This document shows positions 42,929 through 49,023 of a stretch of 64,000 nucleotides of DNA, piece by piece. Positions within the stretch are counted from its first letter, which is position 1. The number at the start of each line of letters is the position of its first letter. A program made the translations under genes and the position numbers. A model generated the notes under the pieces. It did not search any database, was not told where the DNA came from, and saw only the letters and a program-made list of their open reading frames with translations. The stretch comes from Escherichia coli O157:H7 (lineage in GTDB: Bacteria > Pseudomonadota > Gammaproteobacteria > Enterobacterales > Enterobacteriaceae), in NCBI RefSeq assembly GCF_013167455.1, contig NZ_CP038328.1; one strand, given 5' to 3'.

Positions 42929-43294
42929 TTAAGGTTCCAGTTTTGGATCAGGTCCAAAGCGGTTTTCGCCTGGCGTACCCGCCTGGCAGTTAAAGACGAT
43001 GATAATAAGCCAGCCGATAAACGGGATTAAGAATAGCAGTGCCCACCACGCCGAGCGGTCGGTGTCGTGCAGGCGGCGGAACTGAACTGCCCACCACGGT
43101 AAAAACACCAGAATACCGTAGATTGTCGTCAGGATGCCTTCGCCACCAGCGCGTTGCCAGCCTAACATTTTATCCAGCAGCCCCAGCACGAACGTAAAGA
43201 TGATGTTGACCAGAATAAACATCCAGTACTCTTTGCGCCGCGCACGACCCCGGAAACCGACATAATTTTTTAGTACTTTCAGATACCAGTCCAT
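42929..43294 (-). CDS. yhaH: DUF805-family inner-membrane protein, paralog of YhaI
   Basis: MDWYLKVLKNYVGFRGRARRKEYWMF...RRLHDTDRSAWWALLFLIPFIGWLIIIVF (121 aa). Confidence 0.85.
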   Translation of the reverse strand: MDWYLKVLKNYVGFRGRARRKEYWMFILVNIIFTFVLGLLDKMLGWQRAGGEGILTTIYGILVFLPWWAVQFRRLHDTDRSAWWALLFLIPFIGWLIIIVFNCQAGTPGENRFGPDPKLEP

Positions 43295-43379
43295 TTTTGC
43301 CTCAATTTTGCTCAATCACTTGTTTTTAAAGCAGCAAATTAAGAATAGACGTGAATGAAATGGCAGTAAATATTCGTTC

Positions 43380-43545
43380 AAGGAATTAATAAAGTGCTGT
43401 GAAGGCGCGCTAAGACTGATGACAAGCGCAAAATTGCCAGATGCGCTACGCTTATCTGGCCCGCGCGGTCATTGCAACATATTGAATATAAAAGTTTTGT
43501 AGGTTTGATAAGGCGTTCATGCCGCATCCGACATGAACAACATGC
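43380..43545. repeat. REP/BIME palindromic units
   Basis: tgccagatgcgctacgcttatctggcc ... gtaggtttgataaggcgttcatgccgcatccgacatg. Confidence 0.7.
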
Positions 43546-43585
43546 ACTTAGCTAATTATCAGAGGCACCTCGTAAGGTGCTTTTT

Positions 43586-44572
43586 TTAACCTAAGCGAAC
43601 ATCTCGTCCATGCGGTTCATCGAGATCCTGCCACGGACCAATTGAAATAATCCGCGTAGGGTTGATGGTCTTATGACTGCGGAAGTAATGATTACGGATA
43701 TGATCGAAATTGACTGTTTCGGCAATTCCCGGCATCTGGTAGATATCACGCAGGAAGCCATACAGATTAAGGTAATCGCTGATGCGGTGCTTATCACACT
43801 TGAAGTGGGTCACATACACTGGATCAAAACGGACCAGCGTGGTCCACAGGCGAATATCGGCTTCGGTTAGCTGGTTGCCGGTCAGGTAACGATGCTGACC
43901 TAAAATCTGTTCCAGTCGCGCCAGCGATTCAAACACTTTCTCCACCGCTTCGTCGTAGGCTTGCTGGCTGGTGGCAAAACCAGCTTTATACACGCCGTTG
44001 TTAACGGTGTCATAAATCCAGCCGTTAAGTTCGTCAATTTTCGTTTGCAGGGCTGGTGGGTAGTAATCACCCGCTTTCGCGCCCAGCGCATCAAACGCGG
44101 TATTAAACATGCGGATGATTTCTGCTGATTCGTTGCTGACGATGGTGTGGTTCTTTTTGTCCCACAGCACGGGAACAGTAACTCGTCCGCTGTAGTGTGG
44201 ATCGGCGTGGAGATAAAGCTGATACAAAAATTCATGTTGATAGAGCGTGTCTCCGGTTGCTCCCGGAAAACTGTCATCAAAGGTCCAGCCGTTTTCCAGC
44301 ATCAGCGGGTTCACTACGGAAACGGAAATAAACGGTTCCAGTCCTTTGAGTTTGCGCATGATCAGCGTGCGGTGCGCCCACGGGCAGGCGAGTGAAACAT
44401 AGAGATGATAACGATCTTTCTCTGCGATAAAACCGCCTGTGCCAGTGGGGCCAGGAGCGCCATCGGCAGTGAGCCAGTTACGAAATGCGGAAGCTGAACG
44501 TTGAAATTTACCGCCGGTAGATTTGGTATCGTACCAGGTGTCATGCCAGACGCCGTCAATCAGTTGACCCAT
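43586..44572 (-). CDS. yqjG: Glutathionyl-hydroquinone reductase (Xi-class GST)
   Basis: MGQLIDGVWHDTWYDTKSTGGKFQRSASAFRNW... with CPWAHR active-site motif (328 aa). Confidence 0.9.
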   Translation of the reverse strand: MGQLIDGVWHDTWYDTKSTGGKFQRSASAFRNWLTADGAPGPTGTGGFIAEKDRYHLYVSLACPWAHRTLIMRKLKGLEPFISVSVVNPLMLENGWTFDDSFPGATGDTLYQHEFLYQLYLHADPHYSGRVTVPVLWDKKNHTIVSNESAEIIRMFNTAFDALGAKAGDYYPPALQTKIDELNGWIYDTVNNGVYKAGFATSQQAYDEAVEKVFESLARLEQILGQHRYLTGNQLTEADIRLWTTLVRFDPVYVTHFKCDKHRISDYLNLYGFLRDIYQMPGIAETVNFDHIRNHYFRSHKTINPTRIISIGPWQDLDEPHGRDVRLG

Positions 44573-44641
44573 TGTTCTCTCCTCCAATAGCAAAAACGAG
44601 GAGCTTCCTCCTCGTTTTTTATCGTTAAGTATAGCGCGTGC

Positions 44642-45034
44642 TTACCACTTTTTATTCAGCAGGCGGTCGATGCTATACGCGCCCGGACCGGTAATTGCCA
44701 GCAGCAGGAATCCGCCAGAAATTGTCAGGTTTTTCATGAACATCAGCGAGTTGACGCCTTCAGCAAAGTTGCTGTGAAATAAAAATGCCGTCAGCAGCGT
44801 AAAGCCCGCAGTAAACAGGGCTGTGGTGCGAGTCAGGAAACCGAACAGGATTGCCAGACCACCACCAAACTCAAGCAGAATCACCAGCGGCAGCATAAAA
44901 CCCGGGACGCCCATCGCTTCCATATATTGTTGGGTACCCGCGTAACCAGTAATTTTTCCCCAGCCTGCGGTAATAAACAGAATCGGCATTAAAATGCGCG
45001 CTACCAGTACACCAACATCTTCTAATTTTTTCAT
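44642..45034 (-). CDS. yqjF: DoxX-family inner-membrane protein
   Basis: MKKLEDVGVLVARILMPILFITAGWGKITGYAGTQQYM... (130 aa from internal Met). Confidence 0.8.
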   Translation of the reverse strand: MKKLEDVGVLVARILMPILFITAGWGKITGYAGTQQYMEAMGVPGFMLPLVILLEFGGGLAILFGFLTRTTALFTAGFTLLTAFLFHSNFAEGVNSLMFMKNLTISGGFLLLAITGPGAYSIDRLLNKKW

Positions 45035-45219
45035 CATACTCTCCACTGCGCCACTCAGGCTGCTGATTGTTTTTTTGTGCAAGGGCGCGGTATTAGCGTC
45101 GTTGCTGTCGATGGAGAGAATCATAAACGTGGTGAATGATGATTGTTAGCAAGGAAAACTGTCAAAAATCTTCAAAAAATTTGATGGGTAAGGCCGGAAT
45201 GGCTCCGGCCAGAGGGAAG

Positions 45220-45519
45220 TTAACCGCGAAGCTGTTGCTGCTTGAGGGTCGTTTTAACCAGACGCCAGGCGCTCCATACGCCAAAACCGCGTCTGGCCCA
45301 GCGGACCAGCATATTAGGATGGCGAATCGTCCAGATCGCCATCACGCTACTGCCAACCAGCGCCCAGGAGCGCAGACTTAGCAGCATATTCCAGCGACGA
45401 TCGTAAGCGCCTGTTGCCTCCAGCCATTCACGACGACTGGCAGAAAGATCCAGCCGTTGTTGCTGGATCTGGCTAAGCAGTTGCGCCTTACGTCGTTCAC
45501 GTTCGACTTTACTGCTCAC
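45220..45519 (-). CDS. yqjK: Small uncharacterised protein YqjK (99 aa, GTG start)
   Basis: In-frame GTG at 45519 gives (M)SSKVERERRKAQLLSQIQQQRLDL...; overlaps the yqjE 3' end by 11 nt. Confidence 0.65.
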   Translation of the reverse strand: MSSKVERERRKAQLLSQIQQQRLDLSASRREWLEATGAYDRRWNMLLSLRSWALVGSSVMAIWTIRHPNMLVRWARRGFGVWSAWRLVKTTLKQQQLRG

Positions 45520-45913
45520 GGGACTCCTCCTCGAGCAGCTGCCGATCGTTTGCCAGCTCATGGCGTGTATGGCGCAGCAAGGTGGATTTACGCGATTTAC
45601 GTAACGTCCAGATACCGCCAATCAGTGCCAGTAGCAGCAACACCACGGTGGTGGCAATCATCGCATTCAGGCGATATTGCGGATCAACCGCCCAAATAAT
45701 TAGCACCATCAGGCTCATAAGACCAAATGCAGCGAAAAGCATCGTCAGGCCCAGCATCAGTAAAAGTTGAAAGAGATTAGCTTTTTCCTCTTCCAGCTCA
45801 ACCACCGCCAGCCGCAGACGTGTTTCCACCATTTCAACCATGATGGAAACAATTCGCTGCCCGATGCCCAGAACGCTTTTACCGGGCCCTTGCGCGTGAT
45901 GAGTGTCCGCCAT
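45509..45913 (-). CDS. yqjE: Inner-membrane protein YqjE (DUF1469)
   Basis: MADTHHAQGPGKSVLGIGQRIVSIMVEMVETRLRLAVVELEEEK... (134 aa). Confidence 0.8.
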   Translation of the reverse strand: MADTHHAQGPGKSVLGIGQRIVSIMVEMVETRLRLAVVELEEEKANLFQLLLMLGLTMLFAAFGLMSLMVLIIWAVDPQYRLNAMIATTVVLLLLALIGGIWTLRKSRKSTLLRHTRHELANDRQLLEEESREQ

Positions 45914-45915
45914 AA

Positions 45916-46221
45916 TTAACGACGCGACAGCAGAACGCCGAGCACTACACCGATTGCAGCGCCAATGCCCACGCCCGTCCATGGATTTTCACGCACATAC
46001 TCATCGGCACGCGCCGCCGCGACACGGGTTTGTTTGGCGATGGCATCACCGGTTTCACCCAGGCGATAACGGCTCTGTTTCAGTGCCTGCTCCGCTTTGC
46101 TACGAATCTTACTCAACTCTTCTTTCGACTTCTCGCCAGATGAGCTAAGCACCTCTTCCAGCGTATCGGAAAGGGATTTCAACTCAGCACGCAGATGTTC
46201 CGTAGTGTGTTCTTTCGACAT
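45916..46221 (-). CDS. yqjD: Ribosome-associated C-tail-anchored membrane protein (ElaB/YgaM paralog)
   Basis: 101-aa ORF MSKEHTTEHLRAELKSLSDTLEEVLSSSGEKSKEE... with C-terminal TM segment WTGVGIGAAIGVVLGVLL. Confidence 0.9.
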   Translation of the reverse strand: MSKEHTTEHLRAELKSLSDTLEEVLSSSGEKSKEELSKIRSKAEQALKQSRYRLGETGDAIAKQTRVAAARADEYVRENPWTGVGIGAAIGVVLGVLLSRR

Positions 46222-46258
46222 AGTTTTCTCCAGGTGAGTAAGTAGTGACTATTGTGAG

Positions 46259-46627
46259 TTAGTAGTCGCGCGCTTCCAGCTTTTTCAGCTCTTCCTGCGC
46301 TTCTGCCAGTTTCCGTTCGCGTTTGGCAATCTTATCGGCATCGCCTTTTTGCTTCGCCTCGGCTAAATCTTGCTGGCGTTCCGCCACCTCATCTTTCTGC
46401 TTTGCGATTTTCTTCTGATGATCGGCACGCAGCTGGCTATCTGAACAGTTGGCCCGGACTTCACTCAGGGCTTTATTCAGACCGTCAATACGATTCTGGT
46501 TTTGGTGTTTTTCGGCATAGCTGATCTCCTTAAGGATATTTTGCTCCTTTTCCTGACACAGGGTAGTGGCATAACTACCGGCACTAAGAGCAAAAAGAGA
46601 AACAGCTAAAGCGATGCGGTATTTCAT
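46259..46627 (-). CDS. yqjC: Periplasmic coiled-coil protein (DUF1090)
   Basis: MKYRIALAVSLFALSAGSYA signal peptide followed by a Lys/Glu-rich helical region (122 aa). Confidence 0.85.
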   Translation of the reverse strand: MKYRIALAVSLFALSAGSYATTLCQEKEQNILKEISYAEKHQNQNRIDGLNKALSEVRANCSDSQLRADHQKKIAKQKDEVAERQQDLAEAKQKGDADKIAKRERKLAEAQEELKKLEARDY

Positions 46628-46773
46628 TCTTGAACCTTCCATTGTGATTCGGACCTATTACAAAGGAACGATTGTCCAGACAACGAAGCGGTAGTGTTAA
46701 CCACCGCCTCATTAATCATAGACAGTTACGGTGAAATCACCAAAGTGAGTGATCTGTTTCGGACAACAGGAAG

Positions 46774-47157
46774 TTATCCGAAGCGATGAGAGTTATCCCG
46801 TAGCCGGGTCAGCCACTGCATAGCCTGACTGTTATTGTCCTGCTGCGCAATGATGTAGCCTTGGGGCAATGTTCTGTCGAGGACCGCTTTTGCAGCGGCG
46901 CTCTGGTCGCTGGAGTCAAAGGTAATTAACAGAGTGTCGTTTTTGGGGGTGATACTTTTGAAAGGAATGCCATGAGCGTCAAGGTGATGCCAGATTGAAA
47001 AACCGTCTGGCATCGTTGTGCCTTGATGAACGGCACGAATCGCCAGCGTAGACTCTTGCTGGCGAACCGCGGACCAGGCCAGCAACAGCGTGCCGACCAG
47101 AAGTAAAACAGCGCCGGACCAGGCTAGCTGGCGAAGCGACATGCGAGGTATTTGCAT
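46774..47157 (-). CDS. mzrA: Modulator of EnvZ/OmpR (MzrA)
   Basis: 127-aa [39 protein letters not shown]... Confidence 0.85.
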
Positions 47158-47160
47158 CCC

Positions 47161-47823
47161 TTACCCCCGATTTCCATATTTCTTTTTCCATAATACGACC
47201 AGAGAACCTGCCAGGCCAAACACCAGCAGCACCACCGGGAGCAGCATCAGGCATGACATCAGCTGGTCCTCGTACTTTAAAAATACCGGCGTTTTGCCGA
47301 GCATGTAACCCAGAGTTGTCAGGATCAATACCCACAGCAGACCGCTCATCCAGTTGAAAAACTGAAAGCGCGCGTTATTCAGCCCTGATAACCCGGCAAT
47401 CGTCGGCAGCAGTGTTCTGACAAACGCAATAAAGCGACCAATTAACAGCGCCGATAAACCGTGTTTATGAAAAAGATGGTGTGCGCGTTGATGATAATGC
47501 GCGGGTAAATGAGATAGCCAGTTTTGTACGGTGCGGGTATTGCCCAGCCATCGCCCCTGAATATAGCTGACCCAGCAGCCGAGGCTGGCGGCAACGGTCA
47601 GCAGCAGAATCGTTTGCGGATAGCCCATCGCGCCTTTCGCAATCAACACGCCGACCAATACCAGTAAACTGTCGCCCGGTAAAAAGGCCGCCGGAAGCAA
47701 GCCGTTTTCAAGGAACAAAATTACAAACAAGACAAAATACAACATGCCAATCATCGATGGATTGGCCAGGGTTTCAAAATCCTGCGCCCACAGGGCTTGC
47801 AGCAATTGGGTCAAAAGTTCCAT
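47161..47823 (-). CDS. yqjA: DedA-family inner-membrane protein
   Basis: 220-aa [47 protein letters not shown]... Confidence 0.9.
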
Positions 47824-48167
47824 TCATTATTCCTGGTGAATCGGTTAACGCCACGCTGGTTTTAAAAGATGCACTACCGCAATGTTATTGCTGTTTTGGT
47901 ATGTTCTGCGGGTTTGATACATCAACACAGCCTGAACTATTCCCTGTTAAATCGTGAGATAAGAAAGCATTCAAAAACATAAATTCAAATTGAATCTAAT
48001 TGTAACAAAGGTCAACGTTGTTCGTTATCAAAATTACATGTCCGTGGAGTCTGATTTTGCTGAATGCAGGGGAGGGTGGCGAGAGGATTTACACAGGCTG
48101 ACACTTTATACTTTTCGCTTACCGACGAGACAAACAGGCGCGTCGCAGCGCCTGTCGGACAGGTATT

Positions 48168-48944
48168 TCATTTACTGCCACTGGTGGCCGTATCGAGATG
48201 CACTACCGGGTTTTCGGCGAACAGATAGCGGTCGGCATTGAACTCGAAGTCGTCGCTGGTTTCGTTGAATAACATGATCTTGGTGTTTTCCAGGTGCTGC
48301 CACATTGCCAGCTTAGCAGCATGAGGATCTTTGCGAATCAGCGCCTTGAGGATTTGATCGTGGTCATCACACCAGTTATCGACGGTACGGGAATCAATGT
48401 GTTCGTGCAGTTTTTTCCAGTACGGGTTATGGCTACGCTGGGTCCACATTTTTTCAACGATAGCCGCCAGGGCGGAGTTCTGCGTCGCCAGGGCTACCTG
48501 AATATGGAACTGCAAATCCCACTCGGAATCACGGAAGCATTGTTCGCCGCGCGCCTGCTCCTGGATGGCCATCAATTTCATGATGTCCTGTTTCGTTACC
48601 TGAGTTGCTGCGAACTCGGCAATATTACTTTCGATGAGTTGGCGAGCCTGGAGTAACTCAAACGGACCGTAATTGGCGAATTCCATATTATTGTCCGCAG
48701 CCTGCTGATGGCGCGGCTGGTTGGAAACCACGTGAATACCTGAACCTTTACGCACTTCGACATAGCCTTCAACTTCCAGCATGATGATGGCTTCACGAAC
48801 TACCGTACGGCTGACGTTCTTTTCATCGGCAATAAAGCGCTCAGCAGGCAGTTTATCACCCACCAGATAGACGCCCTGTTCGATGCGCTCTTTCAGGTCA
48901 GCGGCAAGTTGTTGATACAAACGGCGTGGTTCAGTGATTTCCAT
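48168..48944 (-). CDS. exuR: GntR-family repressor of hexuronate utilisation
   Basis: [52 protein letters not shown]... (258 aa). Confidence 0.9.
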
Positions 48945-49023
48945 ATGCGCTCCAGGCATGATACGGCAGACTATATTTGTTATACCACTTTTGCGAGTTT
49001 AGCTCTACTCGCAGTGATGAAAA

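Follow-up and report, generated by a model that had tools for sequence, protein, structure and literature searches.

The closest described system is the yqjCDEK operon of Escherichia coli K-12 (b3097-b3100; Pourciau et al. 2023, PMC10746276; RegulonDB), which is σS-dependent and CsrA-repressed. A second σS promoter inside yqjC drives yqjDEK, hence these three genes are also made without yqjC; YqjD reaches levels up to 20-fold over those of YqjC, and under some stresses yqjC and yqjDEK respond oppositely (PMC10746276). Transcription start sites (TSSs) are also predicted before yqjE and before yqjK, which, if real, would mean uncoupled expression (PMC10746276). In growing cells, translation is repressed by CsrA, bound to GGA sites that cover the ribosome-binding sites of yqjC and yqjD (PMC10746276). 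Osmotic induction of yqjC-yqjE has been described in the literature. As for function, Njenga et al. (10.1101/2024.08.16.608256) describe YqjD as a tail-anchored protein of the inner membrane that attaches to the 50S subunit at the exit of the tunnel and renders ribosomes inactive. The same preprint presents YqjD as the archetype of the YqjD/ElaB/YgaM family, with yqjE-like and yqjK-like genes beside DUF883 genes across the family, and describes ElaB and YgaM as later duplications in Enterobacterales.

A more distant counterpart is PA3040-PA3042 of Pseudomonas aeruginosa (PMC11302039), which likewise comprises a DUF883 gene, a YqjE-like gene and a small third gene, the ORFs being <15 bp apart. 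Both stationary phase and envelope stress induce this operon. PA3042 reportedly has no recognised domain and occurs only in P. aeruginosa and P. paraeruginosa. PA3040 and PA3041 show no toxicity on overproduction and the deletion phenotypes of the operon (growth, biofilm, tobramycin) map to PA3042, so that functions may differ between lineages. Concerning gene arrangement, yqjDEK resembles termination-reinitiation pairs (Huber et al. 2019, 2023; PMC6728339, PMC10666635) in having same-strand genes that overlap or lie close together; reinitiation requires overlapping or very closely spaced genes, and pairs of this kind are enriched among complex subunits (PMC10666635).

The window analyzed here, a stretch of 64,000 nucleotides, is 100% identical to annotated O157:H7 RefSeq records and derives from a chromosome of the E. 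coli O157:H7 type. It carries the same genes as K-12, in the same order and with the same junctions; nothing of substance differs, and the window holds the O157:H7 allele of that locus. The four genes are encoded on the minus strand in the order yqjC-yqjD-yqjE-yqjK, between mzrA and yqjF, with mzrA and yqjA upstream and yqjF and yqjG downstream, and the region is found in 5422/5426 complete E. coli genomes. The listed ORFs and the sequence as read match the RefSeq annotation (identical O157:H7 record) and confirm the four short same-strand genes with tight junctions of the original prediction, while the annotation and Pfam matches (E-values 1.7e-34 to 4e-13) bear out the gene names it gave and mark all four ORFs as real genes. 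That prediction is only partly upheld: the identities, the description of YqjD and the GTG start of yqjK stand, but stoichiometric co-production of the four proteins is not supported, given the internal σS promoter, the unequal YqjD and YqjC levels, the opposite stress responses and the predicted TSSs mentioned above (PMC10746276). Elsewhere in the surrounding 50 kb, ebgA/ebgC and higB/higA show 4-nt overlaps and yqjA/mzrA a 3-nt gap. The transcription unit possibly ends at 45174..45210 (minus strand), where a hairpin (GGCCGGA-GCCAU-UCCGGCC, 45192-45210; fold z = -2.4) is followed by a U-run (45174-45179) that sits 12 nt beyond it; a terminator scan made no call there, hence the candidate is weak. 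An Rfam scan of 43000-49000 returned no known RNA family.

The first gene, yqjC (46259..46627, minus strand; RefSeq CDS), encodes a 122-residue DUF1090 protein (PF06476, E = 1.7e-34; 118.6 bits against a cut-off of 24.4), putatively periplasmic, whose N-terminus, MKYRIALAVSLFALSAGSYA, is signal-peptide-like. Its published σS-type promoter, also that of yqjDEK, is read at 46709..46720 (minus strand), with the -10 element TATGAT at 46715-46720 preceding the TSS, an A at 46709 or -82 from the yqjC ATG; what is recorded here is the presence of these letters. Since a simple σ70 promoter scan did not pick up the published σS promoters, they were placed by the offsets given in PMC10746276. The SD of yqjC, AUGGAAGG (46635..46642, minus strand), coincides with CsrA binding site BS1 as defined in PMC10746276, with its GGA at -13 relative to the yqjC ATG. 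Position 46642, previously taken as the yqjC start and the end of the cluster, is not a start but marks the AUG contained in the conserved CAAUGGAAGG SD/CsrA motif. This ATG is in frame and 5 codons upstream of the annotated start in the window, but it is in frame in only 34/81 species; the motif CAATGGAAGG is kept in 81 species and its frame with respect to the yqjC ATG varies. The INRI-seq supplements list, for this locus, only alternative sites for yqjC and yqjF. Moreover, yqjC had been counted as part of the tight packing, but 37 nt separate it from yqjD, which has its own SD, hence only yqjD, yqjE and yqjK are tightly packed.

The internal σS promoter of yqjDEK has its TSS region, GCCAAACG, within the yqjC CDS at 46322..46326 (minus strand), i.e. 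at -101 to -105 from the yqjD ATG when the published site is mapped onto the window (PMC10746276). In the yqjD leader (46229..46295, minus strand), the GGAs of CsrA sites BS2 (46295), BS3 (46277) and BS4 (46231) fall at -74, -56 and -10 from the yqjD ATG, in agreement with the published footprints (PMC10746276), and BS4 overlaps the yqjD SD, CTGGAG. All published promoter and TSS positions and GGA sites of the K-12 operon are therefore at their expected offsets, and as far as sequence can tell they are present base for base.

The protein encoded by yqjD (45916..46221, minus strand; 101 residues) contains PF05957 (E = 4e-13) and, at its extreme C-terminus, the DUF883_C glycine-zipper domain PF19029 (E = 1.4e-15), and its sole hydrophobic segment covers residues 80-100, which supports the C-tail anchoring proposed from the sequence. 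Translation from the annotated ATG is backed by an N-terminal peptide as well as by Ribo-RET and INRI data. Both DUF883 domains and the C-terminal transmembrane (TM) segment are shared with the YqjD/ElaB/YgaM family (10.1101/2024.08.16.608256). Placement in the ElaB family holds in the sense that YqjD is a paralogue of ElaB and YgaM, since it matches the NCBIfam models of both below their cut-offs. The genes of ElaB and YgaM are not known to have yqjE or yqjK neighbours. The statement that the joint function of the cluster is poorly defined remains apt for YqjC, YqjE and YqjK, but not for YqjD, whose ribosome inactivation is published.

To describe the junctions across species we used 80 species-level loci plus the window, all from Enterobacteriaceae and obtained from a single-protein YqjE scan. 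In the window, the yqjD/yqjE junction reads CGT CGT TAA tt ATG GCG, i.e. a 2-nt spacer (45914..45915, minus strand) between the yqjD TAA and the yqjE ATG, with no SD upstream; the tight spacing in the original prediction is thus correct, but the 2 nt are a spacer and not an overlap. Every one of the 81 species has a yqjD-yqjE gap of -1, 1 or 2 nt, and a search by anti-SD duplex energy found an SD before yqjE in 0/81: the energy is never under -1.7 kcal/mol, and no species reaches -4.4, a value attained at 14% of background positions. SDs are present before yqjC in 94%, before yqjD in 100% and before yqjK in 99% of the species set. With its gap of 1-2 nt this junction departs from the canonical 4-nt or 1-nt overlap of reinitiation pairs. 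YqjE is made from the annotated ATG, as its N-terminal peptide MADTHHAQ... has been detected; Ribo-RET/INRI initiation evidence is listed for yqjD and none is listed for yqjE. Lacking an SD and abutting the yqjD stop, yqjE is probably reliant on reinitiation. It should be noted that E. coli genes without an SD can still initiate independently. We found no literature analysis of the yqjDEK junctions or of the absent yqjE SD, the available portion of 10.1101/2024.08.16.608256 included.

The second tight junction is different in kind, since yqjK has a strong SD. This gene (45220..45519, minus strand; RefSeq CDS) encodes 99 residues of the YqjK family (PF13997, E = 4.5e-25; 88.3 bits against a cut-off of 28.1) directly 3' of a YqjE-like gene, and starts with GTG. 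Its SD, GAGGAGGAG (45524..45532, minus strand), is located 4 nt upstream of the GTG within the codons of the acidic YqjE C-terminus (LLEEES), and has a duplex energy of -11.8 kcal/mol in the window, the median for 80 species being -9.3. The 11-nt overlap of the end of yqjE with the beginning of yqjK, GTGAGCAGTAA (45509..45519, minus strand), with the GTG inside yqjE, had been predicted and is borne out by sequence, RefSeq and comparative evidence. Among the 80 loci in which this junction and the yqjK start could be scored, the overlap is 4 nt in 44, 11 nt in 12, 8 nt in 11 and 1 nt in 10, so that 77 overlap by 1-11 nt, while three show a 2-nt gap; the junction never opens up. The commonest state among the relatives is therefore the canonical 4-nt overlap (A/GTGA) of reinitiation pairs, and the 11-nt form is an Escherichia/Citrobacter variant that apparently stems from a 1-nt indel immediately ahead of the GTG.

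Beyond this set, YqjE relatives with 22-38% identity, sampled one by one, keep the order DUF883, YqjE, and YqjK or a small ORF, with junctions from an 8-nt gap to a 31-nt overlap in 6/7 loci; YqjK also directly follows a YqjE-like gene in distant loci, those of Halomonas type included. YqjD-YqjE and YqjE-YqjK fusion proteins from a metagenome protein database were considered as evidence of interaction and rejected, because they are frameshift read-throughs into open upstream frames; the YqjD-YqjE "fusions" are devoid of the YqjD TM segment.

YqjE itself (yqjE, 45509..45913, minus strand) is a 134-residue inner-membrane protein with predicted TM segments at 45-78 and 80-105 and a charged C-terminus. 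Its AlphaFold2 model (pLDDT 88.6) consists of helices 11-75, 78-109 and 113-133, and gave no meaningful match when compared with PDB folds (best E-value 2); for relatives of any of the four proteins, no solved structures were found. An AlphaFold2 run on a fused YqjD-linker-YqjE-linker-YqjK chain reached pLDDT 58 and pTM 0.23, with a paired alignment of 21 sequences.

Taken as a whole, the region is best explained as the known yqjCDEK operon with yqjDEK translationally linked and YqjE and YqjK as partners of YqjD, a reading to which we assign a probability of roughly 85%. Conservation strongly suggests the translational linkage, and the junction architecture would fix ratios that are not necessarily 1:1. 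The operon is induced in stationary phase and by osmotic stress, and yqjE would most likely be translated by ribosomes that end on yqjD and then reinitiate, hence YqjE output would be tied to, and probably lower than, that of YqjD. With its strong SD in the codons of the acidic YqjE tail, yqjK could use both reinitiating and newly recruited ribosomes. The supplements of Mori et al. 2021 contain no entries for yqjE or yqjK. At the protein level, YqjE, seen as a pair of TM helices with cytoplasmic helices on either side, and YqjK, seen as a cytoplasmic helix plus a weakly hydrophobic segment, would be ancient syntenic partners of YqjD and most likely act with it in the membrane, with YqjC as a separate periplasmic DUF1090 protein more loosely joined to the yqjDEK module.

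Tight gene spacing is ordinary for operons and is not unusual in this region, so one may ask whether the junctions reflect mere genome compaction, with the genes expressed and acting independently through internal promoters and independent initiation. Short overlaps and gaps are common, three more tight same-strand pairs occur in the surrounding 50 kb, and the TSSs predicted before yqjE and yqjK, as well as the differing stress responses of yqjC and yqjDEK (PMC10746276), point the same way. Yet we judge this quite unlikely, as the yqjE gap of at most 2 nt and the missing SD recur in 81/81 species when SD-like matches occur at 14% of background positions, the yqjE/yqjK junction varies in length from a 2-nt gap to an 11-nt overlap and never opens, and the order DUF883, YqjE, YqjK is kept in distant lineages. 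A variant in which yqjK starts farther upstream, at ATG 45561 (113 aa) or TTG 45621 (133 aa), and overlaps yqjE by 53 or 113 nt, draws on the yqjK frame being open for 34-46 codons upstream of the GTG in the window as well as in the majority of loci from Escherichia and the Citrobacter amalonaticus group. It is nevertheless hardly credible: both alternative codons are without an SD, and the frame is open for only 11 codons in one Escherichia species. In most genera an in-frame stop 0-2 codons before the aligned start fixes its position, where the codon itself varies (GTG in 46 species, ATG in 33, TTG in 1); the Pfam domain begins at residue 14 of the 99-residue form, and RefSeq annotates the GTG.

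The other alternative concerns the nature of YqjE, which would be a holin-like membrane toxin antagonized by YqjK and/or YqjD, the trio being a chromosomal module of the holin/antiholin or toxin-antitoxin kind, which in stationary phase would stop growth or make the membrane permeable, and not a ribosome-hibernation complex. YqjE indeed shares with Holin superfamily III ("Holin-X", PF07332) a profile match (Phage_holin_3_6, E = 3.5e-21; 75.8 bits, cut-off 28.4), a pair of TM helices and a charged C-terminus; its RefSeq name is "phage holin family protein", and its overproduction stops growth and raises antibiotic tolerance >100-fold (PMC4738310); the tight order and small overlapping downstream gene are also reminiscent of toxin/antidote pairs. 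However, growth arrest on overproduction, the only holin-like effect reported for YqjE, is an unspecific effect of an overproduced membrane protein, and overproduction of the P. aeruginosa counterpart PA3041 is not toxic (PMC11302039). Unlike members of the holin superfamily in phages, YqjE has no phage context: no match at E <= 0.01 was obtained for YqjE, YqjD or YqjK against 38,880 PHROG phage families, and around yqjE there is no lysis cassette, endolysin or prophage, its neighbours (mzrA, yqjA, yqjF, yqjG) being chromosomal core genes. The gene is itself core, present in 5422/5426 E. coli genomes, and always lies 3' of a DUF883 gene, even at 22-38% identity. The "phage holin" label is a family name without phage support, and the toxin interpretation appears unlikely.

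Returning to the translationally linked operon, a stronger form of it can be tentatively put forward, although we hold it to be doubtful: YqjE and YqjK would be obligate membrane partners of YqjD, only ribosomes coming straight from the yqjD stop would make YqjE, as suggested by the lack of its own ribosome-binding site in 81 species, and the trio would be a hibernation unit. If so, the YqjE:YqjD ratio would be fixed and probably sub-stoichiometric, and a growth-arresting membrane protein would never be made alone. Ribosome hibernation tethered to the membrane would then have the trio as its functional unit, and YqjE and YqjK would serve, for example, as receptor, oligomerisation scaffold or release switch for YqjD.

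The locus is the already described stationary-phase yqjC-yqjD-yqjE-yqjK operon and contains nothing new in itself; the σS promoters, the CsrA sites, ribosome inactivation by YqjD and the yqjE/yqjK synteny are already published. The present analysis adds the finding that yqjE directly adjoins the yqjD stop and is without a Shine-Dalgarno sequence of its own in all 81 species, which yields a testable prediction of obligatory translational coupling and argues for studying YqjE together with YqjD and not as a "phage holin". The role of YqjE and YqjK is the question that matters, since the DUF883-YqjE-YqjK trio, connected with ribosome hibernation, antibiotic tolerance and envelope stress, is conserved well beyond the Enterobacteriaceae.

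The four genes of the cluster lie on the minus strand, yqjC at 46259-46627 (122 aa; Pfam DUF1090, E = 1.7e-34), yqjD at 45916-46221 (101 aa; DUF883 and DUF883_C, E = 4e-13 and 1.4e-15), yqjE at 45509-45913 (134 aa; Phage_holin_3_6, E = 3.5e-21) and yqjK at 45220-45519 (99 aa; YqjK, E = 4.5e-25). An ORF listing, a direct reading of the sequence and the RefSeq annotation of a record identical to it all give these coordinates, and the Pfam matches of all four proteins far exceed the curated thresholds; the gene names originally assigned are right. The locus is already in the literature. Over the surrounding 1651 bases the window shows 100% identity to several O157:H7 records, and of 5426 complete E. 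coli genomes 5422 carry the region; mzrA and yqjA lie upstream and yqjF and yqjG downstream. Directly upstream of the cluster, mzrA and yqjA are separated by only 3 nt (47158-47160), and in locus L001 the annotation places yqiM, the gene of a 27-aa protein (5746-5829), 21 nt ahead of yqjA; both pairs are further cases of tight packing in an envelope-related neighbourhood.

Regulation of the yqjCDEK operon was described by Pourciau et al. 2023 (PMC10746276), who reported a σS-dependent transcription start site (TSS) at -82 from yqjC, a second σS promoter within yqjC (TSS -101 to -105 from yqjD), predicted TSSs ahead of yqjE and yqjK, and direct translational repression by CsrA through BS1, over the yqjC Shine-Dalgarno sequence (SD), and BS2-BS4, in the yqjD leader. 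The published sequence elements are all found at the expected offsets in the window, which places the putative yqjC promoter TATGAT at 46715-46720, its presumed TSS (A) at 46709, and the candidate GGAs of the CsrA sites at 46640, 46295, 46277 and 46231, all on the minus strand. The same work found opposite responses of yqjC and yqjDEK under some stresses.

To compare relatives, one genome per species was retained, yielding 80 Enterobacteriaceae loci with YqjE identities of 79-99%, and the four genes were located by script in each of them and in the window (81 species in all). Position 46642, originally taken as the yqjC end of the cluster, proved to be an in-frame ATG five codons upstream of the annotated yqjC start, within the motif CAAUGGAAGG, which comprises the yqjC SD and BS1. 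Relatives keep CAAUGGAAGG as an RNA element and not its frame with respect to the yqjC ATG; the in-frame ATG at -5 codons occurs in 34 of 81 species, and 39 of 81 lack any in-frame upstream start. Inside yqjC, an INRI-seq table records an initiation signal at an ATG out of frame with the gene, at +109 (K-12 coordinate 3249077, window ~46519); the signal may stem from a short internal ORF or from noise. Between the yqjC stop and the yqjD ATG lie 37 nt, and an SD of its own (CTGGAG) precedes yqjD.

In the window, yqjD and yqjE meet as TAA-tt-ATG, so the predicted tight spacing holds, but the 2 nt are a gap and not an overlap. This spacing is conserved, 54 loci having 2 nt between the yqjD stop and the yqjE ATG, 25 having 1 nt and 2 a 1-nt overlap, hence a distance within 2 nt in 81/81, with ATG as the yqjE start codon throughout (81/81). 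No purine-rich SD is present in the 25 nt before the window's yqjE ATG (GCGTTCTGCTGTCGCGTCGTTAATT). When SDs were scored as the best 16S anti-SD pairing with positions -20 to -3, using -4.4 kcal/mol as comparison level, the best value before yqjE was -1.7 kcal/mol and the median +0.7, so that none of the 81 starts reached the level, compared with 94% of yqjC, 100% of yqjD and 99% of yqjK starts, and 14% of random positions in those loci. N-terminal proteomics detected peptides of YqjD and of YqjE that match the annotated ATG starts, and Ribo-RET and INRI initiation evidence is given there for yqjD and none for yqjE (PMC13245402 Table S1).

The second predicted junction was borne out by the sequence, the RefSeq record and the comparison of relatives: yqjK starts with GTG at 45519-45517, 11 nt ahead of the yqjE end, with GAGGAGGAG 4 nt upstream, a strong SD that lies within the codons for the acidic tail of YqjE. 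Of the 80 loci that could be scored, 44 have an overlap of 4 nt (A/GTGA), 12 one of 11 nt (Escherichia, the Citrobacter amalonaticus/sedlakii group and Intestinirhabdus), 11 one of 8 nt and 10 one of 1 nt, and in 3 the genes are 2 nt apart. At or adjoining the aligned position, 46 loci start yqjK with GTG, 33 with ATG and 1 with TTG. Relative to the common 4-nt form, the yqjE stop of the 11-nt form is shifted 7 nt downstream, which looks like the result of a 1-nt indel directly ahead of the yqjK GTG. Most genera carry an in-frame stop 0-2 codons upstream of the yqjK start, leaving no room there for a longer YqjK. The alternatives ATG 45561 and TTG 45621 of the window lack an SD and are ruled out in most relatives, among them one Escherichia species in which no more than 11 codons of the frame ahead of the start are open.

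Ten nt past the yqjK stop lies a GC-rich minus-strand hairpin (GGCCGGA/UCCGGCC, 45192-45210), with a U-run (45174-45179) only 12 nt beyond it. This is no canonical intrinsic terminator; the terminator scan made no call at this hairpin, and an Rfam scan of 43000-49000 matched no known RNA family. Downstream of the hairpin, ahead of yqjF, are σ70-like promoter matches at 45165-45136 and 45149-45120. The longest yqjF ORF (minus strand) starts at ATG 45124 (160 aa), the RefSeq one at ATG 45034 (130 aa), and the INRI-seq supplement has initiation at an in-frame GTG that precedes the annotated start of K-12 yqjF by 12 nt, corresponding in the window to GTG GAG AGT ATG ATG at 45046.

Seven distant YqjE homologues (22-38% identity), obtained by exhaustive search of cluster representatives, were inspected on their contigs, one being of Halomonas type. 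A DUF883 gene lies directly upstream of yqjE in 4/7 (1-nt or 4-nt overlap, or 8-nt gap); in locus L087 a DUF883-like 82-aa protein is encoded 191 nt upstream and yqjE has its own SD, and in 2/7 the contig ends within the upstream gene. In 6/7, yqjE overlaps by 4-31 nt with a downstream gene that belongs to the YqjK family or is a small unannotated ORF built in a similar way; in locus L088 (about 2390-2800) no such gene is called, yet the sequence contains a readable YqjK-like ORF. Those yqjE genes that directly adjoin a DUF883 gene have weak SD scores (+0.9 to -5.5 kcal/mol), against -5.6 to -11.9 kcal/mol for the DUF883 genes. Since these loci keep the three genes and their close spacing, the module, with its tight junctions, is of old origin. 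Locus L084 shows after yqjE a 63-aa ORF without Pfam match (631-822), followed by a second DUF883_C gene (909-1235); the L084 and L088 ORFs share the YqjK build, an R/E/Q-rich N-terminal helix and then a W/R-rich hydrophobic tail, and the YqjK family is probably under-annotated.

The known σS-dependent, CsrA-repressed operon is the best explanation of the region. That YqjE is instead a holin or toxin, as its score above the PF07332 threshold would allow, has a low probability, since yqjE is a core chromosomal gene, the neighbouring genes provide no prophage or endolysin context, and the protein matches 0 PHROG phage families. Its confident model (pLDDT 88.6) predicts three helices, at 11-75 (cytoplasm into TM1), 78-109 and 113-133; no informative structural neighbour of it was found, and PDB sequence searches with the operon's proteins gave no relatives. 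A fused-chain AlphaFold2 run of YqjD, YqjE and YqjK reached pLDDT 58 and pTM 0.23. Proteins of 198-234 aa that seem to fuse YqjD with YqjE or YqjE with YqjK (protein entries P0034, P0003, P0060, P0014) are not true fusions: they are metagenome and genome gene calls matching 45220-46221, one standing for 74 member sequences, that result from single-base frameshifts leading into the frame left open upstream of yqjE or yqjK or, in one case, from an internal deletion.

Returning to the operon, Njenga et al. (10.1101/2024.08.16.608256) describe YqjD as tail-anchored and ribosome-inactivating and show that, throughout the family, DUF883 genes have yqjE-like and yqjK-like genes in synteny with them. 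Overproduced YqjE leads to growth arrest and higher antibiotic tolerance (PMC4738310), and osmotic shock activates the yqjE promoter region (10.1101/2025.05.13.653802). In P. aeruginosa the homologues PA3040-3042 are organised as an operon with <15 bp between genes that responds to envelope stress and stationary phase (PMC11302039). Termination-reinitiation requires an overlap or a very short distance, and such pairs are enriched among complex subunits (Huber et al. 2023, PMC10666635). EσS transcribes the operon from two promoters and CsrA holds it down during growth, as published. In the proposed model, yqjE would be translated mainly by ribosomes terminating on yqjD, so that YqjE output would follow that of YqjD, probably at a lower level, yqjK would be served by reinitiating and newly recruited ribosomes, and YqjE and YqjK would most likely work together with YqjD in the inner membrane. 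Stoichiometric co-production of the four proteins, as first suggested, is not supported, given the internal σS promoter and YqjD levels up to 20-fold above YqjC (PMC10746276); for YqjD, YqjE and YqjK alone it is unproven. The close packing of the genes is genuine and conserved, yet an ordinary operon feature, as three other tight same-strand gene pairs occur within 50 kb. The conserved SD-less yqjE start is a small addition to published knowledge, and it makes translational coupling of yqjE to yqjD directly testable.
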